Part shown: positions 1,507 to 63,484 of the stretch, one piece after another | How positions within the stretch are numbered: position 1 is the first letter of the stretch | Layout of the letters: each line of letters opens with the position of its first letter | DNA from: Octopus vulgaris | Taxonomy: Eukaryota | Assembly (NCBI GenBank): GCA_951406725.2 | Contig: OX597814.1 | Coordinates: 93,806,001-93,870,000, forward strand | Reading direction: 5' to 3' | DNA: 64,000 bases | Position numbers and translations under genes: made by a program | Notes under the pieces: model-generated | The model's input: the letters and a program-made list of their open reading frames with translations, nothing else | The model's database searches: none | Told to the model about the DNA's origin: nothing

Positions 1507-3333
1507 CAGTAGTTTTATTTTTATTTTTATAGCGTGCTTTCACTTCACTACCGAGCGCAGCTCTGTGTGCCTTGGGTATGTGCTGTGATTTGTTGTGATG
1601 CTCTGATGGTTATTGTATGGAAAGTGTTCTGCGTAGGATGTGTGCAGTGCCTAGTAGTGCAATTTTCTGTATGTTATATGTGTTTGTAAGTCCTGGTGTT
1701 TTTGTTATGTATTTGTCTGAATATTTTTTATCATGCCTAATGCACCTACTATGATAGGAATTGTTTCTGTTTTTAGATTCCACATTCTGGTTACCTCCAA
1801 TTCCAGGTCTTTGTATTTTGAAAGTTTCTCCATTTCTTTTAGAGACACGTTGTCATCTGCCGGTATTGATACATCAGTTAGAAAGCATTTTTTTTCTTCA
1901 TGATCTCTGACAACTATATCTGGTCTGTTGGCCTTAATTTCTCTATCTGTGTGTATCGGCATATCCCAGAGTATGGTTGCTTTCTCATTTTCTGTGACCT
2001 TTTCTGGTATGTGCCTATACCATCTTTTTTCTGTTGTTATTTCATAATGTTGGCATAGCTTCTAGTGTATGTAGGTTCCAACTCTGTCATGTCTGTGAAT
2101 ATATTCCTTCTTAGCCAGGACTGGGCAGCCAGAGATAATATGATTTATTGTTTCTTGTCCATCTCCACATATTCTGCAGTTACTTGTTATATTTCTTTTC
2201 ATTACATGTTTTTGGTAATTTCTGGTGGGGAGGCTTTGGTCTTGTGCTGCAATTAAATATCCCTCTGTCTCTGCTTTGAGTCCTGAGCTTCTCAACCATT
2301 GCTGGGATTTTTCTTTGTCTATTTCTTTTGCATTTAGTTTAGTCCAGTATTTACCGTGGAGGGGTTTTTCTTGCCATCGTTTTATCATGGTTCTTTGCTG
2401 TTCTAGTTTTAGTTTGGATTTCATTTGTTTTATAGCTTTTGTTGTTTCTTCATCTTCTTCTTCTTTTTCTTTATATTTGTTAGGTGGTATGATTTCTTGT
2501 TTATATTTGTCAGCTTCCTTGAATACTGAGAACAGTTTTTTGTTTTGCTCGTGTTTTGCCGCTATTTGTATCAGTTTTCCTTCCTTCTGAAGTAGATATT
2601 TTTGCAATCCTATGGTGGTTATTTTATAGCAGTTTTCCAGCTGTATAATGCCTCTACCACCTTCTATACGTTGTATATATAGTCTTTCTATGTCAGATTT
2701 TGGGTGATGCATCCTAGACCCTGTCATTATTTTTCTTGTTTTCCTATCTATTTTGGTCAGTTCATTTAGTGTCCAGTTAAGGATATTGTAGCTGTAACTT
2801 ATAACTGGGACAGCTAAAGTGTTAATACCTATTATCTTGTTTTTAGCATTGAGCTCTGTTTTTAGTATTGATCTAACTCGTCTATAATATTCTTTTTTAT
2901 TTTCTCTTTCATTTGTGTGTGTTGTGTCTTATCTAGTTCATGGATTCCTAAGTATTTGTAAGTTTGGCTTTGGTCTAATTCTTTTATTTCATTGGTTTTA
3001 TCTAGTGTGATGTTGCTACTCTTAACTAGTTTTCCTCTTTTCATGGTTACTTTGGCGCATTTTTCTAATCCAAATTTCATATCTATTTCTTTGGTAAATC
3101 CATGAACTGTCTTTAATAGTGTTTCCAGCTGTTTGTCATTTGCAGTGTATAGCTTTAGGTCATCCATATATAAAAGGTGGCTGATCGTTTTGCCGTAACA
3201 TTTATATCCGCATCCAGTTCTATTTAGCATATCAGATAGAGGTGACAGTGCCAAGCAGAAAAGGAGTGGAGAGAGCGTGTCTCCCTGGAATATTCCTCTT
3301 CTAATGGGGATGGCTTTGGTTTTCATGAGTCCC
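1507..3333 (-). mobile_element. 5'-truncated R4/Dong-like LINE (RT C-half, CCHC finger, RLE, 3'UTR) inserted in (TAA)n
   Basis: GIFQGDTLSPLLF and HLLYMDDLKLY (RT, ORF 2862-3326); CRICG..ETINHIISGC (ORF 2062-2727); RPDIVV..CFLTDVSIP (ORF 1705-1962); (TAA)n on both flanks; frames broken by few lesions. Confidence 0.93.
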
Positions 3334-3383
<50 letters not shown>

Positions 3384-3547
3384 GTTATTATTATTATTAT
3401 TATGAGGAGGAGGAGGAGGTGAAGAAGAGGAAGAAGAAGGAGAAGAAGAAGAAGAAGAAGAAGAAGAAGAAGAAGAAGAAGAAGGAGGAGGAGGAAAAGG
3501 AGAAGAAGAAGAAGAAGGAGGAGGAGGAGAAGAAGAAGAAGAAGAAG

Positions 3548-3578
<31 letters not shown>

Positions 3579-3595
3579 TGAAGAAGAAGAAGATA
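3334..3595. repeat. (TTA)n then (GAG/GAA)n microsatellite
   Basis: Direct reading. Confidence 0.95.
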
Positions 3596-4488
3596 AATGA
3601 GAATGAAAGCATCTATAGCTCTTTTCTGCATTTCGTATTGCTACAATATGGGAACCATTTGTGCTGAGGGAAATAGAAATACAAACAAAATGGGAACAAG
3701 CAGTTGAACTCGTTTAATAACTAAAGTCAACTTTTACCAAAAATGATAACAAAAATGGTAATATTAATTTGATAATGCTAATGATAATTATGGTGTTATT
3801 AGTAATGATAATTTTAGTGATAATAGTCATTATTTCAATGGCAATTTGCAATGATAGAACTCAACTTCTTTTCACATCGATTCGGCAATTCTGGTTTCTT
3901 AATTACAAAACAGAGTTTTATAATGATACTTTTTAGGTTCACGAATATATTTAAATACTTGAGCCTGGGGATTTGAATATTATTAGAGTATTATGAATAT
4001 TATTTTATAATAACATCTATATTCATGCCTTTTAAAAATAAATTTCTTTTAAGTTAGTGGTTTAAAAAAAATATTAACTTTAGAGTACTGCAATTATGAA
4101 ATAATGGTTTTTATTACTAAGTACAATGACCATCTCTGACGCCATAAATTGTTTATGAAAGATATTCCAAGTAGACAGATTTTCTTTGATTATGTTTAGG
4201 TTGGTGTCTATATGTTCGAGGAATTTAAATGAAGAATGCTTGGTAAAGAAAGCAGTCATGGTTTCACAGATCATGTATGACATTAATGCATACGTTTGAT
4301 GTTATATAATATGATTCGGACAAATATTTAATTGAAAGTATTTTCAGACGATACGATGACATATACCGAGAGGATTGCAAGGGATGTAACACAGATTTCT
4401 GTTGATTATTATTATTATTATTATTATTAATTCTTTGTTAGTAAATCTTTGGTTCCATACGATGTCCTTGTTTTCGATGTTTGTGGAT

Positions 4489-15248: not shown

Positions 15249-17563
15249 TATTTCATAACATTTGCCATAAAGGCAGTACATAGAGTAAGTTAGCTTCGCG
15301 GGCTGGACGAGGACATTAATGAAATGAATGATAATGAAAGAAAGATGATGGGGATGGGAGAAGGCAAAAAGCGCCCGCCGACTTCTGCCTCTCTAAAACA
15401 TTGTTCTTTTAAAAACAAACACAAAACGAGGTATTAACCTCTTACAATTTTACAACTTTTCAATTTTTGGACTTAACAGTCCATTACTAACAACAACATA
15501 GTTCAATAGTTACATATGATATAAATACAATACACAAAGCCCCTCCTCCCAGACTTGGCTTACACTTCCCTTAGGAATGCGCCAGCTCTAGGTCGGGGCC
15601 CCTCAAGTCGTATCACAATTTATGACTCGTCCTCAAAATAACTTGTACCTGCACCCTCCGCCATCCACCACGCCTCCCTCAAAATGTAATCGAGTTCCGT
15701 GTTAGCGTCGCCCGGGACCAAGCTATAATCCTCATTGAGCTCCTTCAGCCCAAGCGTCACGTCGAACGCCACGACCTCCATAGCTACCTGCGGAGGCCAT
15801 TCGGGGTCCTGTGTGAAGGCTAAAGGTGCTCCCTTGTGGTGCTTTTCCATCACCTTTTCAATCTCTCCGCCTCTGTGGAAGAGGATCAATACATCGTTTT
15901 TGCTCGGGTGCGGGATATTCAATTCTTTCGTTGGCGGCACAGTTCCCGCCAACGGTGTTTCTTTTTCTGTCGGTGGCACAACCCCAACCGACGTAGTTCC
16001 GGGACATTCCGGTACTATGTCACCGACTGCCGGTAATGTCCCGTTTCTCTTCCTCTTTTTCTTTTTTTTCAACTGAGGGAGGGTGCGTCTCCTCCGTGGC
16101 CGGAAGATTCGCCTTTCCCTCCTCATCCCTAGTATCCTTTGGTGAGCACCCATTGTTGCTCACCTTCCTCTTTCGGCCTCTGTTTGAGGAGTCCTCCACT
16201 TCCTCGGCCGTTTTCATTCCCTCTTCTACAGGGGTTTCACTTAACTGTTCCGGGATCCTATTTTGTTCCCGGGGACAGTTCTTCTTTATATGGCCGGACT
16301 CCAAGCACCGATGACACTTGTGGGGCGACCCTCAAGCATCACCGGGTACCTGCACCCGGCCATTTTCAAAAAATCTGGAAGAACCAGATTGGCTGATTGG
16401 GTCCAAAGGGTCAAAATTGCTTTTGACCCAACCCAAGCAGCCGCAGGAAGAACTTTCACATTAAGGAGCTTAGTTTCGCTGCTACCCAGATCCCAGCGGA
16501 TAGTCTCCTCTATCCACTAGGGTTTTATCCCGGGTGGCAGCCCGTAGATCCACGCTTTCGTCAGTCTCTTTTTTTGGTACGTGGGCAGGAATAAAATTTC
16601 CTTACCCTCCAGGGATTTACTAGCAAATTTGCAAGCCTCTTCAGGGGTGTCAAATAGCAACCACACCGTTGCATATTTGACACCCCTGGAAATGAATTTA
16701 ATTGTTGGCAAATACTCTGCCAACTCCTTTTCAATTGCCGTCTTTTCGAATAGGGCGATGGTGTCGAGGGCCTTGGAGTAGGTTCTCAACACCACCGTCC
16801 TATCTTCACGGTCTTTTAACCACTTTTTAGGCGGTATAATCTCCCATTCCAAAATTTTGTCATTTTTCATTGCCATGTTTTTTTGGGTTTTTTAAAAATA
16901 TATTCAAAATAAACTTAAAAAGCGAGAAGAAAAAGTTCAAAGGTCCAAATAAAATTCGATAGATTTTTTGAAAAAACAAAAAGGAGGAAGCACAACAGAA
17001 GGGAAGAAATCAACGGAAAGTCGCAATAAACAAAAAAACAAAAAGGGGAGTTTAATGAAGTTCAAAAGAAAGTCAGTAAACAGCAAAACACAGCAAATCT
17101 TCTGGCCTTACGGTACTCCCGGCCTGAGTTGAACCTAGAACGCCGCAACTGGAACACAAAATTTGGTCCAAAAGGTACTCCAAAAGTGGCTCATTCTTAT
17201 AATTTTCTTGCGAGATACTCCGACAAAGGAATAAATTCAACAAACCCAACCACAGCACTGGCCACCGCCAACGGTAATTTTAACAGTAACTTTATTGTGT
17301 TCTGAGGATACGCCTCTCCACTGTTTTTTTTTCAATAAACACAAAAACAGCAGCCGCCGAGAGCAGGCGAAATTGTCTCAGAGTTGGACACAACTTACTG
17401 AAAAAATAATTAGCACGCAATAAATTATGCCCAACTCACAATAAACAAAATCACTCACCTCGACAACTTTCTGTTTTTGGTCTTTTTTCTGTAATTGGAC
17501 GGAGCTAGCTAACTCACGTCCACTCTGGCTCAACAGGAAGCAACTGACTAACAGCGCATGTGC
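15249..17563 (-). mobile_element. Complete 2.3 kb ORF1-only (half-LINE/HAL1-like) non-autonomous retroposon
   Basis: 15-bp TSD gttagcaagctactt at 15234-15248 and 17564-17578; one disrupted ORF 16876->15620 with CHRCLESGHIKKNC knuckle; ends in AATAAA; no RT/EN motifs seen. Confidence 0.85.
15620..16876 (-). pseudogene. gag/ORF1-like protein (~420 aa) with CCHC zinc knuckle; one stop and two frameshifts
   Basis: ORF pieces 16517-16876, read-through to ...MLEGRP, shift to KCHRCLESGHIKKNCP (16020-16304), shift to 15620-16153 tail. Confidence 0.8.
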
Positions 17564-22455: not shown

Positions 22456-22599
22456 CTGATGATGATGATGATGATTTCTCTTACTGGACACAAGGGCCAA
22501 ATCATTCAATAAAAGGAACTACTTGATATGAAGGTGGAGGGGAAAATTCAATTAAAATAGTAAAAGGAAAGGAGATTAATAAAGTGTAGTCAGACTTAC

Positions 22600-23249
22600 A
22601 GCAAATAATTGTCCAAGTGTAACAGATAATCCGGAAAGAAGATTAATAATGTATAGGCAGACTTACGGCAAATAATTGTCCAAGAGTAGATAGAAAGTGA
22701 TCGTGAGCCCATATCTGAACGTTTGGGGTCAAGGTTAGCAAAAAAAACGTAAATACCATAATAAACGTTATCATAAATTCTATACCAAAAGCTTGACCTT
22801 TGTGTTTCGGCATGAACCGTTGTAACCCCTAGTTGGCCGTGCGCCTCATGTGGGGTTAATCCGTATAAAATACCAGCGCCTGTAATGGCACCGGCGTATT
22901 GTGCTGTGATATAAAAAATTGCCCTTAGCACATTGACGTTTCGCGTGACTAGCATTGCTATAGTAACGGCCGGATTCAGGTGAGCACCGCTGATATGTCC
23001 CACACACTGGACCAACGTGGCGGTGGCCAGTCCGAAAGTGAGTGCTATTTTCAATTCGTATTCGATGAGCCGTCTCTCATCCATGATCTGTCGTTTCTCT
23101 TCTTGTCTCCATAACGTCCAAGAACCACATCCGATGAAAGTATAAAGCAAAGTAGTAAGGAATTCACAGCGGACAGCCTTCCAAAAACTGTGACTCATTA
23201 AGTCCTCCTTAAGAGACATCAGCTTGCTTCGGAACGGAGTTTCGGTCAT
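22600..23249 (-). pseudogene. Aquaporin (MIP family, AQP4/big brain-like) exon covering TM1-TM5, disrupted by indels
   Basis: FWKAVRCEFL, GHISGAHLNPAVT (first NPA), AQYAGAITGAGILY; GQAFGIEFMITF in a shifted frame; ends GLSVTLGQLFA|GTAAGT donor; second NPA exon not found in window. Confidence 0.85.
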
Positions 23250-23379
23250 AGCTGAAGCTGTACTGAAATCAACAATTGATGCTGATGATGCGGTTAACGT
23301 TGCCTCTGCCGTTATTGTAGCTGTTTTCTATTTCTTTTCTGTTTTTCCTTTTTTTCGTTTCTGATTATTATACTTCTAG

Positions 23380-27269: not shown

Positions 27270-29663
27270 CTCATGTCATGCAATTAAAATCAAAAACGCA
27301 AAAATGGACACGTGAAGAATATATTTCAAAAAAGGTACATCAGAAATAGACATAGAACGCTTAAAAGGAAAAATACATCAGGAAAGAACACAGCAATGTC
27401 AAATAATATCATAAGCAGTGGGACTGTAAAATACGAAGACAGAAGAAACATGTCCAGAAACGAAGTAAACAACGAAAGACAAGAAACCCAGACCGTAGGA
27501 ATGTATAATAATGACCAACAAGCACCAAACCAGAACGCCACAGACAAAACATATGAACGGGAGGGAATACGAAGCAAATCTAAAACCTGGAGACAGTGAA
27601 GGTGAAACTAATGATTATGTACACTAAAAATTAGCTTTATCAAAGAATTGAAAGCTACAGATCTCAGTATGGACCACCGAGTGTACCTCCCAAAAATTAA
27701 AATTGATAATAAAACAACGTCAGTAATAAATAGCATGAACCTAACCGTCACAGAACTATTCGCCATAGAAACAAATGTCAATATGGCCAGGCTAAATGAT
27801 ATAATATATGCAGCAGCCCCGCTGGCCACAATCCCTAATACCCATCCAAACACGAGCATCCCCATCCCCCAAAAAACTGTGGATAAATAATATCCAGAAC
27901 ATAGTAGCATATATGAGAAAGGTTCTGTCAATTCTTAATGAAACTACTAGACAATCAACACTACTAAGCAACAAGAAGAGAAGAAAAATACTACATAAAT
28001 ACAAAATTACAGAACAAGGTATACTGAGGTAAGAGAACAGCTAAAGCAAGATATCCTCACCAAAGCATAAAGAATCCGCCGGTATGAGAAACGCTAACGT
28101 TTCTTTGAACAAAATAAACAGTTCAACTCCAACCTGAAAAGATTCTACCAAGCATTTGGCAAAAATATAATAGACATCAATGCAGCAAGAGTGGAAGAAT
28201 TTTGAGAATGAATATGGTTGGCGAAGAAACAACCTGTGCAAAGATCTATAAAAACAACGAACATAACACCTGGACAACTCTGGAGTCCTGTAACAACTGA
28301 AGAGGTTATTCAAGTACTGCAAAAACTAAGCAACTGGAAGGCAGCAGGGCACATCAATTTTCCCAACGTCTGCTTAAAATATCAAACAGGAACACATAAA
28401 AAGCTGGTTGAGAAATTTAATGAAATACTAGTAGAGCCAGAGACAATCACTGAAGGGAAAACTATCCTAATTCCCAAATCTACTGAAACGGCAAACCTAC
28501 AAAATTGCCTCTGCATTTTACAAAGCCTTTACTGCAAGAATAACACAGATAATGAGCAAACATCTGGAAGGAAACAACCTGTTTCCAGAAGAGCAAAAGG
28601 GAATCTGCAAGGGCTCATACGACTGTAAATATCAGCTACTGATCAATTAAGCCATAACTGAAGACAGCCGCAGAAGAAAGAAAGGATTAAGTATGGCCTG
28701 GATCGATTACAGAAAGGCTTTTGATAGTATTCCCCACGTATGGATCCTAGAAACACCAGCCATGAATAATAGCACCAATAATCAAAATATAGATGGATGA
28801 TCTAAAAGAGTACGGTACTAATAGTAAACAGTACATGGATTTACCAAATAAATAAACATGAAATTTGGCTTAGAAACATGTGCCAAAGCGACCTTGAAAG
28901 GGGAAAAAGGAATTGAGAGTGTCAACATCCCACTAAATAAAGCAAATGAAACAAGAGAATTAGACCAAATCCAGACGCAAATACTTAGGAATCAATGAAC
29001 TAGATACGATACAACACACACACAAATGAAAGAAGATTAGAAAAGATACTATAGAAGAGTAAGATTAATACTGAAAACAGAGAGCTGAATGCGACTAACA
29101 AGATAATAGGTAACAACACTTTAGCCGCCCCAATTATGAGTTACAGCTACAATATTCTTAACTGGACTCTAAATGAGCTAATCAAAATTGACAGGAAAAG
29201 AAGAAAAATAATGACAGGATTTAGGATGTACCACCCAAAATCTGACATTGAAAGGTAAGTACACAACGTATCCAAGGTGGTTGGAGCCTTATACAGCTAG
29301 AAAACTATTACAAAATAACCACTATAGGACTACAGAAATACATACTTTAGAAGCAAGGAAAACTAAATAGCCACAAACCACCAGCAAAATGGAAACCTCT
29401 TTTCAGCCTTTAAGGAAGCTGACAAATACAAAAAAGAAGTCATAGTACCTAACAACTATGAAGAAAAAGAAGAAACAACGAAATCCAAACTAAAATAAAA
29501 CTGGAACAGCAACAGATCATGATAAAACGATGGCAAGTAAAGCCCCTTCATGGCAAACTTTCGGTTAAAATAAAAAGAAATAGACAAAGCAAAATCGCAA
29601 CAATGTTTGAGAGGCTCAGGACTCAAAGCATAGACTGAAGGGCTTTTAATTGCAGCACAAGAT
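27270..29663 (+). mobile_element. Decayed, internally deleted R4/Dong-like LINE
   Basis: NWKAAG, EGKTILIPK, EEQKG, LSMAWIDYRKAFDSIPH, MKFGLE.CAK, TEGLLIAAQD; nucleotide similarity to 2230-3090. Confidence 0.88.
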
Positions 29664-32700: not shown

Positions 32701-33092
32701 ATATTATATTAAATTAGAGATAAAACCACTATTAGGCAAATCAAACTGAAAATCATAAACCAATACATAGAAATAAAATTAATTAATAAATATAAAATTC
32801 CATTTAAAAAATTATTTAAATCAATAATTTAAACTAATCGTTAAGTTTCTAATTTGATAATAGAGTTTTTTATAAGAAAAATTATTATTTTATTTATTTC
32901 TTTAAAAATATTGTTTATATATTTCTGATTATTTATTCGAATTATTAATTGAATTTAAATTATTGTTATTCGAATTGGTTACGGGCATGAAACGATCGTA
33001 GTGGTTTTATTCTTTAATACTTTTAATACTTTTTGATAGTTATATAAAAAAAAATTAATTAAAAAAATAATAAATAAATAAATAAATAAAAT

Positions 33093-33179
<87 letters not shown>

Positions 33180-33867
33180 CGCAGGAGTGGCTGTGTGGTA
33201 AGTAGCTTGCTAACCAGCCACATGGTTGCGGGTTCAGTCCCACTGCGTGGCATCTTGGGCAAGTGTCTTCTGCTATAGCCCCGGGCCGACCAATGCCTTG
33301 TGAGTGGATTTTGTAGACGGAAACTGAAAGAAGCCTGTCGTATATATGTATATATATATATGTGTGTGTGTGTTTGTGTGTCTGTGTTTGTATCCCTAGC
33401 ATTGCTTGACAACCGATGCTGGTGTGTCTACGTCCCCGCCATTAGCGGTTCGGCAAAAGAGACCGATAGAATAAGTACTGGGTTTACAAAGAATAAGTTC
33501 CAGGGTCGATTTGATCGTCTAAAGGCGGTGCTCCAGCATGGCCGCAGTCAAATGACTGAAACAAGTAAAGAGTATATTTATTTAAAATTTATAAGTTAAA
33601 ATTATTAATTGAAATAATTTTTTAAAATTTAACTTTAATTTAAATATTTTAATTTGGAATTTTATATTTTATATTTTTTATATATTTTTTATTAATTAAT
33701 TTTATTTCTATGTATTGGTTTATGATTTTCACTGTTTGATTTGCCTAATAGTGGTTTTATCTCTAATTTAATATAATATATATATATATATTTATACTAT
33801 AAAATTAGATTTAATCCTAAATCTAATTTTTCCCTGTAAGTTTGGATTTACTCCCTAATATTATTAT

Positions 33868-33870
<3 letters not shown>
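32700..33870. repeat. AT-rich element with imperfect inverted arms (32700-32838 / 33591-33780) enclosing a SINE
   Basis: aaattagagataaaaccactattaggcaaatcaaac vs gtttgatttgcctaatagtggttttatctctaattt; same family recurs at ~53430-53700. Confidence 0.8.
33178..33573 (+). mobile_element. Full-length OR-like SINE
   Basis: tRNA-like head, cttgggcaagtg core, internal microsatellite, gactgaaacaagtaaagag tail. Confidence 0.93.
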
Positions 33871-37127: not shown

Positions 37128-37310
37128 TGGTGAGAATTTACAAAAAAAAAGAGGAAGACGGGTGTGTAAACAAAAAGCAGATGTATTAGTTTAACTCTCG
37201 GGAAGTGAAAAAGTCTTTTATGATTCGAACCTACGCTCTTCAACAGAAAGGAACACAGAAATAAACAGAGAGAGAAAATAAAACAAGGTTTAGTGGCTAG
37301 CGATCTACCT
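37128..37310 (-). mobile_element. Solo Penelope-type terminal repeat (family also at 49600-49785 and 58965-59255)
   Basis: Shared sequence and hammerhead-like motif 37215-37250. Confidence 0.75.
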
Positions 37311-38816: not shown

Positions 38817-38875
38817 TTTGCTGTCTCTTATATGTGAAAAAAGAGCCTCTTTTTTCACATATAAGAGACAGCAAA
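38817..38875. repeat. Perfect 59-bp palindrome (29-bp arms, 1-nt spacer)
   Basis: tttgctgtctcttatatgtgaaaaaagag-c-ctcttttttcacatataagagacagcaaa. Confidence 0.95.
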
Positions 38876-40538: not shown

Positions 40539-40549
<11 letters not shown>

Positions 40550-41284
40550 AAAAAATGAAGTTCGAAAATGCTGCTGTATTATACAATTTTTAATTTTTAT
40601 ATATACATTATAACATGTTTCAGTTCCTGAAATGAACCTTATCAAAAAAAGTTATATATAAAAAGAGACAGCTCATGCCGTCAAACACAAGAAATTCATT
40701 TATAATACACAACGGAGTCAGACATCTTAGAGTTCATGTATAGTTGATATATAGTTCATGTATAGTTGATATATAGTTTGAAGTATATTTCAAAGTGTTC
40801 GATGCAGTGGCCCACGGTGGCGATACGTATTCAATACAAAAAACAGATCAAAGTGGTGGAAAGCGGCCAATACAGAAGATTGATGTGGGTCATCACAATT
40901 GCTTAAGGTAAAAATGAATTCCTCGCTCTTTCGGAAACATCAATCTTCTGTATTGACCGCTTTCCACCACTTTGATCTGTTTTTTGTATTGAATACGTAT
41001 CGCCACCGTGGGCCACTGCATCGAACACTTTGAAATATACTTCAAACTATATATCAACTATACATGAACTATATATCAACTATACATGAACTCTAAGATG
41101 TCTGACTCCGTTGTGTATTATAAATGAATTTCTTGTGTTTGACGGCATGAGCTGTCTCTTTTTATATATAACTTTTTTTGATAAGGTTCATTTCAGGAAC
41201 TGAAACATGTTATAATGTATATATAAAAATTAAAAATTGTATAATACAGCAGCATTTTCGAACTTCATTTTTTACAAATATATA
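40539..41284. repeat. Near-perfect inverted repeat: 348-bp arms, 50-bp spacer
   Basis: 40539-40886 vs 40937-41284; I saw one mismatch; both arms carry the same short internal tandem duplication. Confidence 0.95.
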
Positions 41285-41739: not shown

Positions 41740-44055
41740 AATAAACAAGTGGATAGAAATCAACACATAACCTTCAACAAACATCGAAAAAATCCAATCC
41801 ATACAAGCACCAACCCCATGCGACTCCACAAATTTACGAGATGGATAAAAAACAACCCCCACTATCAATACAATACAAACACAAAACATGAACCATCCAC
41901 CTACCCACAAAGAAACCTGAAGCCCAGTAATAGAAATTGGCTCAACACACACGGAAGGTGGGAAGAAAACAACTACCAAAGACAAAACAACATATACAGA
42001 CCATATAGACCACCCCTACTACTACAAGAAAACCTAAGATATGAAAATGGAATTGGGAGACGCAACAGCACAACCCCTTTTTTAGGGAAAGGATACTTCA
42101 ACCATATTCCAGACCCAATACACCAAAAATTCCAAATGAACACACAAAACACATAGACCCCAAACTAATAAACCTATCTAAAAGAGAACGTAACGAAAAT
42201 GAAATGAATCTACTACTAAAAGGCCCCAATTTTACACCCACACCCAGTCCAAATCTTTATAGAACTAAAAACTGATATAGACAACTTCAGCCGCCACCTC
42301 CACCTTATGGAATTCTTTGAAAATAAAGAAACAGAAGATAACTCAATCATAAGGAAAAAATCCCATTTCACCCCTTACAAGGGGAGTGACAAACACCTAG
42401 ACGCATACATCGAGACAATATCCAAATTCCCTCTCAACACGCACAAATGCAAACAGAACCTCCGCAGAAGAGAAAAACAAGCCTTACAAAAACTAAAAAA
42501 TGACAAGTCGATCATTATAAAAGAAGCTGACAAAGGTGGAGCAATAGTAATTATGGATACATATTACTACAAAGAAAAGATACTGGAGTTACTTAACAAC
42601 CAGACATACTATAAAGAGGAACCAACACCACGGGAGAAAGCAACAATAAAAAAAATTAGAACATTAGTCAATGAATACCAGACCTCCTTTACAGACAAAG
42701 GGAAAGACTATCTATGCAACACAAGAACCAAAGATAGCAACTTTTATGGATTACCTAAAATTCATAAAAGCTCTAAAATACAGAGAGCCATAAAGGAACA
42801 GAGGAACCACTATATAAAAATACAAAGGCCCGCAGACCTCACAATGAGACCAATAGTGGCAGGACCCCAGGCACCGACACAACAACTAAGCCACTTCATA
42901 GATGTACTCCTCAAACCTTTATGCCCACAAATACCAAGCTACATAAAGGATGACATAGACTTCCTCACATCAAGACATCAAGAAAAAATGGAAACGTTAC
43001 CTCGATGACTGCTTCATCTTTTGGAACAGATCAGAAGAAGACCTACGACCATTCCACAACATCCTCAATACACTGCACCCATCTATCAACTTTACAATAA
43101 ATACCAGCCACAACGAACGTCCCTTTATAGACATCAACATCAAGATACACAACTCCATCATCACAACAGATATCCACTACAAAAAAACCGACACACCAAT
43201 ATTTAAATTTCTACTCCTGCCACCCATCCCACATAAAAAGAAACATCCTATATATTAAGGCAAGACGCATATGCAGCATAGTAACTGACTCACAAACACA
43301 CCTAATAAGACTAGATGAACTTAAAAACTTCCCACTAGAACAAAAATACCCCCTTAAACTAACAAAAAATGGAATCTCAAGAGCAATGAAACTGGACATC
43401 ACACAACTCAGGACCCCCAAAACAAAAAAAACAAAACAAAGAAAACATTATCCCTTTCATAAACACACAAGCCTGGAGTTACCAACATGTTTCAAATCAT
43501 ACATTCAAATCTACCAATAGTCCTATAAAGCCCCAAAATGGAAAACATACTAAACAAATATTGCATAAAAAACAGTAGACGACAAGACAAAACCTGAAGA
43601 AACAACTAACAAGAGCGAAATTCTCATCAGAAACTCAAACTGAATTCTTTGTAAAAGAATGCAGGGATGGTAGATGTGGGATCTGCAGTAACGCCACCTA
43701 CAAATACATAGAGGGAGACAAAGAAATGAAATTCAAAAGTGGTCACATATTCAAAGTAAATGCGGATATGAACTGCAAGACGCAGAACGTAATATACTGC
43801 ATAACCTGTCCCACATGCAAGGAGGATTATATAGGTGAAACTGGAAATTCTTTATGCCAATGAGCCAGAATTCACCGACAGCATGTCCGACAGGAGGAAC
43901 TGCGCAAGATACCACTGAATAAACACCTAGATACATGTGGAGAAGGAAAATTTAAGATCTTTCCCTTCAACAAATGTCCAAAGAACGACACCTCCTTCAG
44001 GAAGAATATGGAAAAATACTTCATAACTAAGTTCTCCCCCAAATTGAATAGGTGA
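41740..44055 (+). mobile_element. Penelope-like retroelement (RT with internal deletion + GIY-YIG), decayed
   Basis: ORF 42307-43008 IIKEADKGGAIVIMD, FYGLPKIHK, RPIVAG; then KWKRYLDDCFIFW; NVIYCITCPTC..YIGETG; ends SPKLNR*. Confidence 0.92.
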
Positions 44056-46899: not shown

Positions 46900-49780
46900 C
46901 AGCCTTATGCGCGCCACCATTCGTTCTAATCTTTCCAAAATACACACCATCGACCGTCTTCTCCCTCATGCTTTTTCCATCTTCTCTAGGTCGCCTTCCC
47001 ATGAAAACACTACTTTACGTTACATAATTCATTTAAATCATCTCTTTCATCAATTTCTCGCTCACACCAAACAGCGTAAACCCCAATCACTCCTCCATAG
47101 TCACACACGATGTCACTACCCTTTTCATTCCCTACCACTCTCCCTTCCTGATACGCTCCCCCCATCCTCACCAAAGCCCCTTCCAACCCTCCTCACACAT
47201 ATCCGCTCCCCTCCCTCCCCGCCTTCTACTATCCCACCACCCTTCTCCACTTCCGTCTGTTATCATTCCTTCAGATGTTCTCCCCTTTGAGACGGAGCGC
47301 TCCATCCTTAGTAGGGATCTGCACTTTATGCCCATCACTACATCCAGCAACGAATTTCGGTCTCGTGCCGATACCCACACCTTTGTGCGCCGTGTTATAT
47401 TTTGTGCACTTTCCGCGACACTCCACTCGCTTCTAATGGGGAGGACTCCTTCACCGACCTGGGCCACGGAGCATCCCAGTGGACGCCAGCTCCTGGCCAG
47501 TTCCAAGCAGTCGATCTTTTTGCGGGCGCCTGCCAACGCGCTGTGGACCGGTTTAACTTTCCTAGCTATCCACGTCATTTGAACATCTCCCCAGCCGAAC
47601 TCTCAGCCCTTCAATGTATCCGACGCCATTGGCGACATCCAGAGCCTTTATACGGTGATTCCTCACAACGAGGGTCTGCGTTCACTCCAACATTTCCTTG
47701 ACCTTCGACCCAACCCCCATCCTAACACATTCACACTCGTTCGTCTGGCCGAACTTGTCCTCGCACTTAACTCCACGTTCGCAAGTGATTTTTACCAGTA
47801 AGTCTCGCAAGTGGCTATGGGAACGAGAATGGGCCCCAACTATGCGAACCTGTTCGGCTACGTTGAGGCAAAAACATTCTAAGTTTCACTGGTCTCAATC
47901 CCGAACTATACGGCCGTTATATTGACGACTGTATCGGTGCGACCTCGCTCTCCTGCGAGCATCTAGGCTCCATCCTCTCTTTTGTCAAATCTTTCCATCC
48001 TACCCTCCACTTCCCCTGCACTATTTCTGACACTTCCGTCTCCTTTCTTGACATTTCGGTCAGCATTCATCACTCCACTCTCACCACTTCCATCTACTAT
48101 AAACACACAGACTCACACTCATACCTCAACTTCTCCTCCCACTCTACACACACCAATCTTTCCATCGCCTATTCCCAATTCCTCCCACGCAAGCTCTGCA
48201 GTGATGAGCATGACTTTGAGACTCAGTCTCATCTCATAACTCACCACTTGCTTCCTACGTGGATATCCCCTCACCACTATCCACACCGCCCTCGCCAGAG
48301 CACATTCCGTGGACCGTGGATTTGCTCTCTACCCCGCACCCGACCCGCCGTCTTCTGTTTCCCGTCTCCTGTTTCCCTTCACGTACCACCACACTACCCT
48401 ACCTCTGCAACGCACCATTCTCAGAGCATTCCAGCGACTCCAGTCCGACTTCTCCATTTCGCACATCTTCCCTAACCGACCCACCCCTCCTTCAAACGAG
48501 CCCACAACCTACGAAACCTCTTGGTCCACATCTTCTTTCCTAACCTAACCTTCTAACCCGGCCCGTATCCCTGCTCCCGCCCACGCTGTCGCACTTGCGC
48601 TTACTTCTCCAACACCACCCTCCTCACCGGCACCCATCATCGACCATATCATATCACCGACTCCTTCGCCTGCACTTCTAGCAATATCATCTTTGCATCT
48701 CCTGCTCTCTCTGCCTTTCTTCTCTATACATTGGTCAAACGGGACACCATTTGGCTGACCGGTTCGCGGAATACATCCGAGACATCCGACTCGGCAATGA
48801 CACCCCGGTCTCGCGCCACTTCCGCTCTACCGGCACACTTTGCAACACCATTCTGTGGTCGGATTGTCTTTGCATAGGGGCCATTCGGACTCCCGTCTTC
48901 GCCGTGAACAAGGATTAATCTTCTCTCTTCGCTCCCTTGTGCCACATGCGCTCAACTCTTCTCCCCTCTTCTTCTAATCCTCCTCCCCTCTCCTCTCTTC
49001 CTCTCACACCTACTTCCTCCCATCCGCCTCTCCTTTCTTGTTCCGACTCCTTCTTCTCTTCACGCCTACCCTCCTTGTCTCTTCTCTTCACTCCTACCCA
49101 CTCCTCCCTTCCCCCTCTCCCCTCATAGTCACCCCTCCCTCGTAAACCCACCTCTACAAAATCCAAACCCACCTTCACTATCCATCCCATCCCACCCCCA
49201 CCCAATCCCTTACACCCACTCCCACCCAATCCCTTACACCCACTCCCACATACCCTCCTTTAACCCCACCCTCAGCCTAACACACACCCACCCTTACTTT
49301 CCCAACTCTCGTCTTCCCCACATCCCAACACTACCACACCACACCACACACCACCAAACCACACACCACCACATCACTGCACACCACCACGCACACACTA
49401 GCACTGACCACTTCCCAGCACCCACACCATCATCCACACACCTACACATGCCCACATGCACACCTCAAGGTCACCAGCCCTCTTCCACACGTACATACAT
49501 GATCTCTTATACACGCACACATTCGTTTTGTGATTACCACTACTTTATTATCTCCCTTTCTTACTAGCTCTCCTGTGTGACCCCTCTGTCCGGCTTTCGC
49601 CATGATAGATCGGTAGCCACTACACATTCTTCTCTCCCTGTTACTTTCTGTGTTCCTTTCTGTGGAAAAGCGTAGGCTCGAAACGTTAAAGTATTTTTCA
49701 CTTCCGGAGCGTTAAACTAATACATATGTTTGTTGTCTACATCACCTGTCTACAACTTTTATTTGCATTTTTTGGTGAAT

Positions 49781-49785: not shown

Positions 49786-49861
<76 letters not shown>

Positions 49862-49868
<7 letters not shown>

Positions 49869-50488
49869 TGGCAGGGCAAGACTGCTAGGTAGTCGGCCGT
49901 ATGCTTGAAATAGATCATCAACGATCAAACTACATGTTAAAATTAATATTAATTTATCTCCCTCATTATTTAAATATTGAAATAAATACGTTCTCTAGTA
50001 GCAAGCACTAACCGCAGTGAATTATTTACTGCAGTTCTTCGCTTCAGGAATTCTTTAGCGCGCCGGAACTAAGACATTTGAAATTTTATACCTAATGTAA
50101 TCGGTAAGACTAAACACGTGTCTATTTTGGCACAGAAAGCTGGGATTAGTTCTTCAGATTTCATTTACACTGAACGATTGCACTGATGAGGCAACGGACA
50201 TTTGAATTATGTAAGTAATTCTTCTGTTAAAGGCCGAAACCGAGGTATGCAATTAATTCTGTTTTTTATATAAATTTGGTTCTGGTGTTCGCTGAATTTT
50301 TCCTCTAGAGAACTTTCTTTGTAGTTTGATCGTTGATGATCTATTTCTAGCACACGGGCGACTACCTAGCAGTCTTGCCCTGCCAATATACACATATATT
50401 AGAATTTTCTCTGATTTCTCAGATTTTTTGTATGCTAGACTACTGGTTTTAAATTGATGTTAAAATTAATATTAATTTATCTCCCTCA

Positions 50489-50495
<7 letters not shown>
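49862..50495 (+). mobile_element. Non-coding hammerhead-bearing element with 73-bp inverted and 39-bp direct repeats, between (TA)n tracts
   Basis: Inverted arms 49862-49934 / 50320-50392; direct repeat 49934-49972 / 50457-50495; no ORF. Confidence 0.8.
50177..50253 (+). ncRNA. Intact-looking type I hammerhead ribozyme
   Basis: ATTGCA-CTGATGA-GGC[aacgga..gaattat..gtaattc..tctgtt]GCC-GAAA-CCGAGG-TA-TGCAAT; all core residues canonical, 6-bp stem I, GUA cleavage site. Confidence 0.82.
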
Positions 50496-50556
<61 letters not shown>

Positions 50557-50582
50557 AGAAAATGGATGTAATTAACACTTCA

Positions 50583-52168: not shown

Positions 52169-53149
52169 TTAAGGTTTGCATGATGGAGAGGTTCTTCTGT
52201 ATAGAATATCTATCTCATTTGTTTCTCGATTTCTTTTAGTATAATAAGGGGCACAAACTGTGGAACCCCAAGTCATTTTGAATTTTGGGGGATTAGCTTT
52301 GATGATTGCAACATTACAGTATTTATTGGGATGCCTCCATCCTGCATAATTACCGTCCGATGTCGTTTGATGAACAGCAGTCAGAGATTCTGTAGCATCA
52401 ATAAGTGTCATATTTTGAGAATTTGCAAAAGCGATCAACCAATTATCATATCTACTACGTCCAATGACGAAATCAAAGATTTGATTCCAGGGAAAGTGTC
52501 GATTTGTAATAAAATAATCTATTGCTATGCCTCTCATTAATTTTCCGCTTTCAGCTATCTTTCGAATATTATAAGAATTCACAATGTATGTACTATTTGT
52601 AAATTTAACGTTTGTCCTTTGACCAACTATTAGTATAGGTCTATTTTGTGGTAACTTTTTCTTAATAGATTTCAGCGTATTGATAAGACTCTCATCGAAA
52701 AGAATGTCAGCATTTGCATAGCCATAGAAGTCGTGATCAGTAAAAGACGCAAGTACTTCAAGAATCATCGCTTTTAAAACTGGTATTTGACCGCAGGCAA
52801 CTTTTGTAACATTCCGTATCCTCCAATTTTTTCTTAAATACGTATCCAGCCGGCTGCTACTTACATTATCCGTGGGTATTGCTGGTCTAAATAATACAGG
52901 TTGCAATAATAACGGCCAACTCCCCCATATTCGGGCTGTATTTTCATAAATTGCAAGTTTTTCTGGTGATAAGTTCCACGTTGTGATAAGGACTAATAAA
53001 AACTTGGTTTCTCGCAACTGATTAACGAGGCTTCTCTGTCTGTGTAATAGGCGCTCTTTTAAGTGTTTGTCTATCAAAAGTATCCCCGCAAGCAAGAAGA
53101 TTGTGATAATACCCATAATAAGATATTTTTTTCGAAGCGACATGCCCAT
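52169..53149 (-). CDS. Type II membrane protein, putative glycosyltransferase (GT-A-like), 326 aa, single coding exon
   Basis: Uninterrupted ORF; basic tail + TM helix (YLIMGIITIFLLAGILLI); YANADILF DxD-like motif, IDYF, IGRSRYDNWL, IDAT..LTAVHQ; splice acceptor ttttatttcag directly before ATG; AATAAA at 52021-52026 (-). Confidence 0.8.
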   Translation of the reverse strand: MGMSLRKKYLIMGIITIFLLAGILLIDKHLKERLLHRQRSLVNQLRETKFLLVLITTWNLSPEKLAIYENTARIWGSWPLLLQPVLFRPAIPTDNVSSSRLDTYLRKNWRIRNVTKVACGQIPVLKAMILEVLASFTDHDFYGYANADILFDESLINTLKSIKKKLPQNRPILIVGQRTNVKFTNSTYIVNSYNIRKIAESGKLMRGIAIDYFITNRHFPWNQIFDFVIGRSRYDNWLIAFANSQNMTLIDATESLTAVHQTTSDGNYAGWRHPNKYCNVAIIKANPPKFKMTWGSTVCAPYYTKRNRETNEIDILYRRTSPSCKP

Positions 53150-53692
53150 CTGAAATAAAAATAAAGCAACTTGATATTATAGTGATTGATTAATTGGATC
53201 TTTTCTGTTTGGCTTAAATTTTTTAAATTTTAAAATTATGTGAAAATTTTTAGATTTGATGTATTAATGTAATTTTTCTTATAGAAATAAAATTATTATT
53301 TTATATATTTTTTAAATAAATATTGTTTAACACTATTTGCTTATTTATTTAACTATTATCGTTAACCTAAAGATTGATTATAATTTTAAATCGAATTTGT
53401 TTCAATTGATGTAAACTTAATTGTAATTCGAATTTAATTGTAGCCATGAAACGTACATAGTTTTTTTTACTTATTATATATTGATCATTCATTTTTATAC
53501 TTTTTGAGAGCTAGTTATAGTTTTATAAAAATGTATATTTGTTATTTATGTTTTGATCTTTGTCTATCACTGTTTGAGTTTGCATAATAGTGGTTTTATC
53601 TCTAATTTGTATTTTATATATTTATATTGTAAAATTTAATTTAATACTAAATTGAATTTTTCCCTGTAAGTTTGATGTTATACTCCCTATAT

Positions 53693-53734
<42 letters not shown>

Positions 53735-58964: not shown

Positions 58965-59108
58965 CTTAAAACAAACAGATGTATTAGCATAACGCTCAGG
59001 AATAGAAAAATGCTTTTACGTTTAGAGCCTACGCTCTTCTACAGAAAAGGACACAGAAAATGAGAGAAAAAAAATGTGTGTAGTGGCTAACGATCTATCA
59101 ATTCTCCT

Positions 59109-59149
<41 letters not shown>

Positions 59150-59255
59150 AGAATTCACAAAAAAAAACAAAAGACGAAGACAAGTTGTGTAGACAACAAA
59201 CAGATGCATTAGTTTAATGCTCGGGAAGTGAAAAAATATTTTACGTTTCGAGCCC
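58965..59255 (-). mobile_element. Two partial tandem copies of the Penelope-type terminal repeat
   Basis: aaacagatgYattag..gctc.ggaa..ttttacgtttMgagcc occurs twice; hammerhead-like motif 59013-59049. Confidence 0.75.
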
Positions 59256-61523: not shown

Positions 61524-62835
61524 TTCTTAATATAACTGTAATAAAGATTTCCTTAAGGGAAGAATCCGAAACAATCATTATTTTAAAATCTAAACAATGA
61601 TTATAATTGCTTTGTGAATTATTTTCTGTGAAATTAATTCTTAATTTCTTGAAATTACACCCCCTTATCTTTGAAAATAGTTTGCAAATGCTTGTTTTTC
61701 TCTGTCTCTCCAACTAAAAGTCTAGTTACACTTCCTTAAGAATTTTTGTTGTACGGCAATCCATGTATCGGAATTACACCGAATATATTATCTGTGTACT
61801 TTATAAATGCACATGCCCTAACAAACACATAGATTTATTCACGATTCATGCACAACGAGCGCTCAATTTCAGAACAGGTCTTTCTGTATATGTCCCATAG
61901 ATATTAAATTACAGTTTTTCCTTCGAATGCAGGGTTTAGTAACATTTACATATACAATTTATACAGGGAAATATATACATTTGCGTTTACACTTTAGATA
62001 TACATTTCTACAGGGAAATATATACATTTGTGTTTATAATATACAGATGTATGTATATCAAATGTTTAAACACACAAGTGATAAACCGACATAAGCCAGA
62101 GTAAATCGAAATTTAAAACGTACATGTAGTCTGTCTCTCGGTTTAAACGAAATGTACGGGAAATTTTATACTACTTTTGTGAAACAACCAAAACAATTTT
62201 AATAGGTTTTTCCACGACTGGTATCACGTCATTAATCACGGGATCCAGGATTTTTAAGCTCGGACATGCACCGAATATAAGTAGGGACACGAAGTTGGCG
62301 ACATCGCCGAAACTCTTTATAATAACTTCTTTCGACATTTTCGTATAATCATTCGGATTTAAGTTCATTAAAAATGCAAATATAAATAGCAGGATTCAGT
62401 TATCTTGTGTTATATTAAATAAACATACACACACACATACACTGACACTACTCAGTACAGCTGCACACACAAAATTCACGCGAACACATACACACACATG
62501 CAATCCCAAATCCTTCCAAACATACATTCATACATCCACCTACCCACACAACAACAGCACTGATAAGCGGGTAAGATACGACGTCAAAATGAAAGCTCTC
62601 TAGATTAGGCATCAACACATGGATAGACAACAACAAAGAAACAACCACAATGCTACAGTGGTGATGAACAAGTCTGACTACTCGAAAAAACTGGCAAGTC
62701 TTATAAGTGATGGTAGCTACAGCAAAGTAAATAATTTGTTTTTTTCGTAAACTCTCCCTATATATATATATAGTTATGTACACGCACTCACACAGGACAC
62801 CCAAGTACATACATACATGCATATATGTATATATG

Positions 62836-63319
62836 TTAAAGAGACAGAACCACCTTGAAGCAACTCAAACAACGCTGAACGCATTGACTATGATAGAGAT
62901 ATATAAGATTAACTTTTATCAAAATTAATATCTACAATTACTACTATTCTGAATGATATATTAAATTGAATTATTTAGACCAAATAACTTAATTTACTAT
63001 TTGACATAAATATCATGAAATTAGTATTAGCTTATCTCATTCTGTCTCGCAGAACCCCTCGGAACCTTTTGCGGAAGCCCGGTTGAGAAATGTTGCCCTA
63101 GGCCTTCAGGACACGAAATCGAAATTAGCCTTTTTGATTGTGGGTAAATGTAAATAATATCATTAACTGGATTTAGACCTAAATAATTTAATTTAATATA
63201 TGATTCAGAATAGTAATTGTAGATATTAATTTTGATAAAAGGTAATCTTATATATCACCATCGTAGATAGGGTCGTTCAGTGTTGTTTGAGTTGCTTGAA
63301 GGTGGTTCTGTCACTTAAA
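62836..63319. repeat. Imperfect inverted repeat, ~150-bp arms, between (TA)n tracts
   Basis: gacagaaccaccttgaagcaactcaaacaac..ttttatcaaaattaatatctacaattacta vs its reverse complement at 63172-63319. Confidence 0.88.
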
Positions 63320-63322
63320 CCT

Positions 63323-63357
<35 letters not shown>

Positions 63358-63416
63358 ATACAGCGAGAAATTGAATTTCTCTCCACTGTGGACTCGGAAA
63401 TAATTTACCTAATATT

Positions 63417-63484
<68 letters not shown>

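Follow-up and report, generated by a model that had tools for sequence, protein, structure and literature searches.

How did a stretch of some 630 bp, with a hammerhead ribozyme motif between inverted repeats and no protein to encode, come to lie in an octopus genome? We addressed this in a 64,000-nucleotide stretch of Octopus vulgaris DNA (GCA_951406725.2, contig OX597814.1, positions 93,806,001–93,870,000 of the forward strand; hereafter the window, with positions counted from its first letter), in which the insertion occupies 49862–50495. The answer that we favour, with a probability of about 0.55, is that the element is a copy of a many-copy, non-coding hammerhead family with a unit of 523 bases, and that the reverse transcriptase (RT)–endonuclease of a Penelope-like element (PLE) likely used an uncut head-to-tail transcript as the template to copy it into a TA microsatellite. 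The family itself is likely a non-autonomous, retrozyme-type passenger.

The insertion sits between two (TA)n arrays. The left array (49812–49861), the target site, is preceded by a (TC)n run that belongs to the 3′ end of a different PLE family, and the right array covers 50496–50551; TA repeats as such extend over 49812–49868 on the left and begin at 50490 on the right. Directly beside the left array lies an inverted, 5′-truncated copy (49862–49934, minus strand) of an internal segment of the element (50320–50392, plus strand). Its 3′ end abuts the TA array, and base 49934 is shared with the sense copy. When aligned, the two arms show reverse complementarity at 70 of 73 positions, a match that grows to 80 nt at 95% if the TA-like edge is counted, and at two of the three mismatches the left arm carries the family letter. 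The sense copy begins at 49934 with the first copy of a 39-bp repeat, repeat B (49934–49972), which opens a complete, non-coding unit of 523 bp with 34% G+C (49934–50456, plus strand). A second copy of repeat B (50457–50495), exact, in direct orientation and at a spacing of 523, forms the 3′ end of the insertion. The right arm ends at a TA-like stretch (50385–50399) and is internal: beyond it the family sequence goes on for about 100 bp as a 3′ extension, or tail (50393–50495), with a small hairpin (50410–50423), and the two terminal inverted repeats of a MITE-style element are not found. The 39-bp overlap may or may not correspond to the classical PLE tail.

The inverted arms, the (TA)n on both sides and the lack of an open reading frame had all been reported in a preliminary description of this locus, and all three hold. 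The longest stop-free frame in the element measures 68 codons, a search with 120 PLE proteins gave 0 matches at E ≤ 1, a profile search gave none, and there is no ORF for an RT and a GIY-YIG endonuclease such as an autonomous EN+ PLE carries. A scan for bacterial promoters, irrelevant here, was empty.

What template was copied? The sense copy amounts to one unit plus 39 nt and crosses the predicted hammerhead cleavage site uncut, from which we infer a template longer than one unit. The preliminary description read repeat B as the signature of a circular permutation and proposed that a Penelope RT had copied a circular or tandem template. The PLE layout and the longer-than-unit template stand as the best reading, but the 39-bp repeat is equally compatible with a tandem transcript and cannot single out a circle.

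Is the unit a family in its own right? It was found in 20 of 24 listed sequencing runs, from nine studies and under four organism labels, and exact-pattern scans of metagenome contigs and viral contigs gave 0 matches. Two DNA-type runs from two organisms, X1 and X2, yielded 1,322 and 1,101 matching contigs, with all 30 bins of the unit covered. Depth summed over the unit ranges from 6,719 to 367,888 in X1 and from 11,607 to 456,988 in X2, with single listed pieces at 25–122; these sums are not a copy number, and plainly imply many copies. Depth is several-fold greater in the 3′ part of the unit. Sequence detail was drawn from 29 of 2,491 pieces and 40 of 69 variant rows, besides which there are 210 further loose ends. 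Among these 29 pieces, which differ from the window by a median of 9.5%, all junctions from 49967 to 50184 are bridged with at least 31 letters per side, so in other copies repeat B leads into the hammerhead with no room for an ORF; junctions 50185–50192 and 50234–50287 are unbridged at 31 letters. The coverage of all 30 bins, together with diverged pieces that join repeat B to the hammerhead, argues that the unit is a many-copy family rather than a one-off truncation. The proposed non-coding hammerhead unit of about 520 nt is thereby borne out, at 523 bp and free of PLE coding sequence, and the case that the preliminary description had set against it, of copies that are simply truncated ends of a coding Penelope element, is disfavoured by this coverage and by the diverged pieces.

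The same contigs bear on the two ends of the insertion. At least seven diverged pieces among those listed carry the mirrored segment through 50392 into the tail, and no joint of the left arm to repeat B is listed among the 2,423 DNA contigs; two joints listed for other copies involve no strand change. The inverted arm is thus a feature of this insertion and not a terminal repeat. Head-to-tail joints (50458/50463 to 49951) occur in four contigs of X1 and two of X2, with a thin reach of about 9 letters past repeat B in the one case that has a stated side length (31). A contig spanning the whole unit and a full dimer were both absent among the listed pieces, whose contigs are short. On the suggested check that copies be tandem and free of ORFs, the listed pieces leave no room for an ORF from repeat B into the hammerhead, and the joints in these six contigs may reflect tandem copies. 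Matched DNA continues into unlike sequence in at most 1%, a figure that short contigs bias low.

Other loose ends reveal variation within and around the family. One at 50272, in 10 X2 contigs, begins with 12 letters that repeat 50266–50277; by eye, many other copies are longer by about 24 bases near this point, where two AAATTT words flank the added sequence, for a unit of about 547 nt, and the window copy is without them. The unbridged junctions at 50234–50287 fall at the same place as this loose end. The loose ends listed for 50089 and 50133 carry variant forms of the unit's own sequence and mark no exit, and those at 50352, 50424 and 50463 lead to sister families. A 6,168-nt contig of another run (X19) ends in a tail related to 50424–50463; this contig may come from a coding partner or from a host transcript that contains an insertion. 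None of the listed runs is recorded as RNA; two guessed to be RNA gave 37 and 5 pieces, leave a gap over the 3′ half of the hammerhead and say nothing on expression. Both copies of repeat B in the window share a G (49936 and 50459) where the family has A in 93–98% of depth (183,451 of 187,409 in X1; 346,463 of 370,802 in X2), as expected if one template gave both. At about 10 positions the window copy differs from nearly all other copies, and these private changes indicate that it is not brand new.

The hammerhead motif (50176–50254, plus strand) is of type I and has a complete core, with CUGAUGA at 50183–50189, GAAA at 50236–50239 and GUA, and cleavage is predicted after 50247. Helix I comprises 7 bp (50176–50182 with 50248–50254), and helix II (50190–50235) consists of 3 bp and a long extension, 46 nt in all with internal loops. 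The helix III region (50239–50246) is near-palindromic and offers 2 bp and a 4-nt loop; as a monomer this helix has a predicted probability of 0.02 and is not stable, and an intermolecular duplex is predicted at −6.6 kcal/mol. Predictions for the isolated motif show helices I and II and the G10.1–C11.1 pair, with pair probabilities of 0.67–1.0 and 0.98. A strict hammerhead descriptor matches once in the window; of 200 dinucleotide-shuffled versions of the same sequence, 2 contain a match. The Rfam hammerhead models gave no match at the gathering score in the window, and none at E ≤ 10 in 49800–50560. The motif had been called fully canonical, which applies to its core and not to its fold. The helix III predictions suggest a dimer-type hammerhead, in which cutting would need two units.

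Predictions for the whole unit have the hammerhead blocked, at a cost of 6.9 kcal/mol. A50090 pairs in one of the blocking helices, and that letter is nearly absent elsewhere in the family. A long-range helix (50046–50304; 50046–50072 with 50276–50304) is predicted to enclose the hammerhead domain with pair probabilities of 0.93–0.96 and, counted over 50046–50075, has 22 Watson–Crick and 5 G–U pairs; covariation lends it no support, and across the listed variants as a whole a pair is kept in 8 of 21 cases, with 8.3 expected. Folded as a circle, the 523-nt unit has a compact predicted structure (−129.2 kcal/mol), and both strands are more stable than shuffled sequences (z of −3.8 and −4.6). The letters of the hammerhead core are absent from the 40 of 69 variant rows examined. 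At 50190, which closes helix II with a G here, the family has an A in 14,769 of 19,291 depth in X1 (77%) and 7,139 of 10,105 in X2 (71%), and this A would break the closing pair. At 50233, G is replaced by A in 23% (X1) and 35% (X2) of depth, and the same 40 rows contain no compensating change for 50190/50233. It may be that most of the family are poor ribozymes, or else that contig filtering has biased these shares.

Coding PLEs are found in the same window. The 120 PLE proteins that leave the element blank light up two relics, at 41.9–44.05 kb and 47.6–48.85 kb. The relic at 41900–44052 (plus strand) is a near-complete, frameshifted ORF with RT, a cysteine linker and a GIY-YIG domain, at 41–59% identity to mollusc-associated PLE proteins; the linker before the endonuclease, recognised by eye, points to the Neptune/Nematis type. 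The second relic (47630–48850 and 49606–49780, plus strand) has a 3′ end with a minimal hammerhead-like motif, and this end recurs at 37143–37307, 58970–59100 and 59132–59254. The three copies that extend across this motif have the core CUG-U-N-GA, in which U replaces the expected A6. This relic stops at about 49780, directly left of the element, and belongs to a different family; from its ORF to its hammerhead-like end it has about 900 non-coding bases. A Pfam scan of 10 translated fragments returned only aquaporin and one sub-threshold DUF, and PLE identity comes from the protein and profile searches.

Three further fold-backs, at 32.7, 40.5 and 62.8 kb, had been put forward as members of one general class with the element. 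They are real, with arms that match at 136 of 146 (32.7 kb, split by another repeat), 340 of 341 (40.5 kb) and 155 of 176 positions (62.8 kb). Each has an extension past its right arm and then (TA)n, at differing lengths, which is the ordinary layout of a PLE insertion. None of the three has a terminal direct repeat or a unit-plus-overlap structure, and a recognisable, though degenerate, hammerhead is present only at 40.5 kb. The PLE layout is thus what all have in common. Aligned over their tails, five fold-back ends agree weakly (46% mean column identity), with a loose common ending and no shared family.

Individually, these and other features of the window are as follows. The 40.5-kb fold-back is a palindrome (40546–41277) of 341-bp arms around a centre of 50 bp, and each arm contains a degenerate minimal hammerhead (41178, plus; 40645, minus) as well as a 22-bp tandem duplication. 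An AT-rich fold-back family at 32702–33870 and 53542–53697 has a tail ending much like repeat B, and a GAAA-palindrome-UA half-motif at 32989 is without a convincing 5′ half. The fold-back at 62828–63420 is older; its centre measures 140 bp, and past a TA run it has a tail of about 70 bp. A near-perfect palindrome of 59 bp lies at 38817–38875. Host genes include an aquaporin (MIP family) exon at 22596–23327 (minus strand; E of 3e-38) and a single-frame gene of an uncharacterised mollusc family at 52169–53176 (minus strand), 99% identical to Octopus sinensis LOC115218909 over the matched part (52172–53146); some relatives of this gene are named glycosyltransferase-like. Segments at 1705–3713 (minus), 16020–16891 (minus) and 28828–29662, one with a zinc-knuckle-like motif, we take by eye to be fragments of non-LTR retrotransposon-like ORFs.

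With which known elements does the unit belong? In the sections consulted of the two papers on metazoan non-LTR retrozymes (PMC7229834; bioRxiv 10.64898/2026.07.22.740005), these elements resemble it as many-copy, low-G+C, non-coding units with one type I hammerhead, coexist with PLEs and are known as monomer copies too. Its 34% G+C lies below the retrozyme limit of 45–50%, and its weak helix III recalls the axolotl and newt motifs described in PMC7229834. The unit of 523 nt exceeds the 170–400 nt given in that paper and falls within the 51–972 bp of bioRxiv 10.64898/2026.07.22.740005. It differs in its 46-nt helix II with internal loops, and the PLE-type inverted copy and tail were not found described for retrozymes in the same parts of both papers. 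With 1.07 units and a single hammerhead in place of a retrozyme dimer, the locus also lacks two consecutive units with a hammerhead and does not pass the two-unit 'active' test of Li et al. 2026.

The insertion itself resembles those of EN+ PLEs of the Neptune/Nematis type, for which passages of PMC8557442, PMC3846280 and PMC11167929 describe an inverted, 5′-truncated copy on the 5′ side and a tail at one end; a hammerhead lies close to the 3′ end, and the (TA)n target is without discernible duplication. The octopus element differs from these in having neither an RT nor a GIY-YIG ORF, a closed map of 523 nt and a tail of about 100 bp instead of 30–40 bp. Chlamys PLEs such as MRC1, as far as PMC8557442 was covered, are non-autonomous elements of green algae without canonical hammerheads, whereas the octopus unit has one; non-autonomous PLEs with head-to-tail copies are already in print for algae (PMC8557442). 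Hammerheads of PLEs, in the part of PMC4209133 used here, agree with the octopus motif in their type I topology, in a palindromic region at helix III and in predicted dimer action; in the octopus motif both helix I (7 bp) and helix II are longer, and this copy has no bulged base between positions 9 and 10.1. Dimer-type hammerheads have been described, in passages of the papers concerned, for PLEs (PMC4209133) and amphibians (PMC7229834). No cephalopod example of such an element was found in the literature searched, which included passages of a cephalopod repeat paper and lay outside subscription journals, Repbase and Dfam. We file the element as a non-autonomous PLE-type hammerhead element, probably retrozyme-like in its working and PLE-like in its insertion.

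How might such a unit have been inserted? According to passages of PMC8557442 and PMC3846280, PLE insertions often comprise an inverted, 5′-truncated copy and a one-sided tail, and are biased toward (TA)n; at our locus an inverted, 5′-truncated copy lies beside the sense copy in a microsatellite. An anole PLE assayed in vitro, in the sections consulted of PMC11167929, nicked both strands of AT-rich DNA, started RT at two internal sites and used unprocessed RNA, and insertion was normal with hammerhead mutants. By analogy, a GIY-YIG endonuclease would nick both strands of (TA)n, and RT would start at two internal positions of the RNA, one near 50395 and the other at 50495, some 100 nt apart. 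The TA-like stretch at 50385–50399 likely served as the first of these sites, to judge from its position. The cDNA from 50495 would extend back for one unit plus 39 nt, past the hammerhead site left uncut, so that repeat B is written twice; the cDNA from 50395 would stop after 73 nt and come to lie in inverted orientation at the opposite flank. At a one-base overlap the two 5′ ends would then be joined, and the window copy would later have gathered its private changes. The function of the hammerhead is probably not needed for the insertion.

Two other layouts were considered. A DIRS-type arrangement is rejected, since its split repeats are complementary and repeat B is a direct repeat. Twin priming, the L1 mechanism, on one dimeric RNA fits the 60-nt gap between the end of the inverted copy and the start of repeat B; the arms of the other fold-backs overlap fully, so this fit may be a coincidence.

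Three alternatives to an uncut tandem template deserve weighing, and we rank them in the order ligated circle, rearranged end of a coding PLE, and MITE. A true retrozyme cycle, in which dimeric hammerheads cut tandem transcripts, ligation yields circles of 520–550 nt and the PLE RT copies slightly more than one turn, is a tentative second choice that we consider unlikely on balance. It would account for the intact passage of the sense copy through the cleavage site and for its 39-bp self-overlap, it agrees with the compact fold modelled for the circular unit and with hammerhead core letters that do not vary in the 40 rows, and circles are known for coral, mussel and axolotl retrozymes from the parts of PMC7229834 consulted. 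An uncut tandem transcript gives the same overlap, however, and the anole hammerhead mutants had no effect on insertion. Only one of nine Xenopus dimers cleaved according to the relevant portion of Li, Clavereau and Pollet 2026 (bioRxiv 10.64898/2026.07.22.740005), the base that closes helix II is A in most of the family depth, and the head-to-tail joints come from DNA-type runs, whose contigs cannot show circles.

More doubtful is an origin from a coding PLE with a long 3′ UTR, whose non-coding 3′ end (pLTR) would have undergone a single rearrangement as it inserted, so that the unit is no independent family. The neighbouring coding PLE, with its long non-coding stretch before the hammerhead-like end, means that the missing coding similarity is not enough by itself to dismiss such an origin, and both the depth peak in the 3′ part and the related tail on the 6,168-nt contig would suit it. 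Set against this, diverged copies lead from repeat B through the same 200 bp to the hammerhead, where the tail of a coding PLE leads toward the ORF (passages of PMC11167929 and PMC3846280), and the loose ends listed at 50089 and 50133 offer no exit. A MITE with 73-bp terminal inverted repeats, a TA target and a chance hammerhead would explain the arms and the TA flank on the left, yet is largely refuted and very improbable: the right arm is internal and crossed by diverged pieces at 50392, the arm-to-B joint is missing among the DNA contigs listed, and the three other fold-backs repeat the arm-plus-tail asymmetry at other lengths. Copying of a non-coding unit from an uncut tandem transcript by PLE machinery thus remains our preferred reading.

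The kind of element is already known, and for the specialist the finding is useful rather than surprising. So far, the mobilisation of animal retrozymes by PLEs rests on shared hammerheads, co-occurrence and pLTR similarity, in the sections consulted of PMC7229834 and bioRxiv 10.64898/2026.07.22.740005; the footprint of a PLE insertion on a non-coding hammerhead unit is more direct evidence of this partnership than co-occurrence. The many-copy family also allows RT start sites to be mapped and the question of a circular or an uncut tandem template to be asked. A bolder idea, which we regard as improbable at present, is that the octopus makes abundant hammerhead RNA circles of 520–550 nt that serve a Neptune-type Penelope enzyme directly as templates for reverse transcription, and that the genomic copies record this step. 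If true, such insertions would be anatomical proof that PLE machinery moves animal retrozymes from circular templates.
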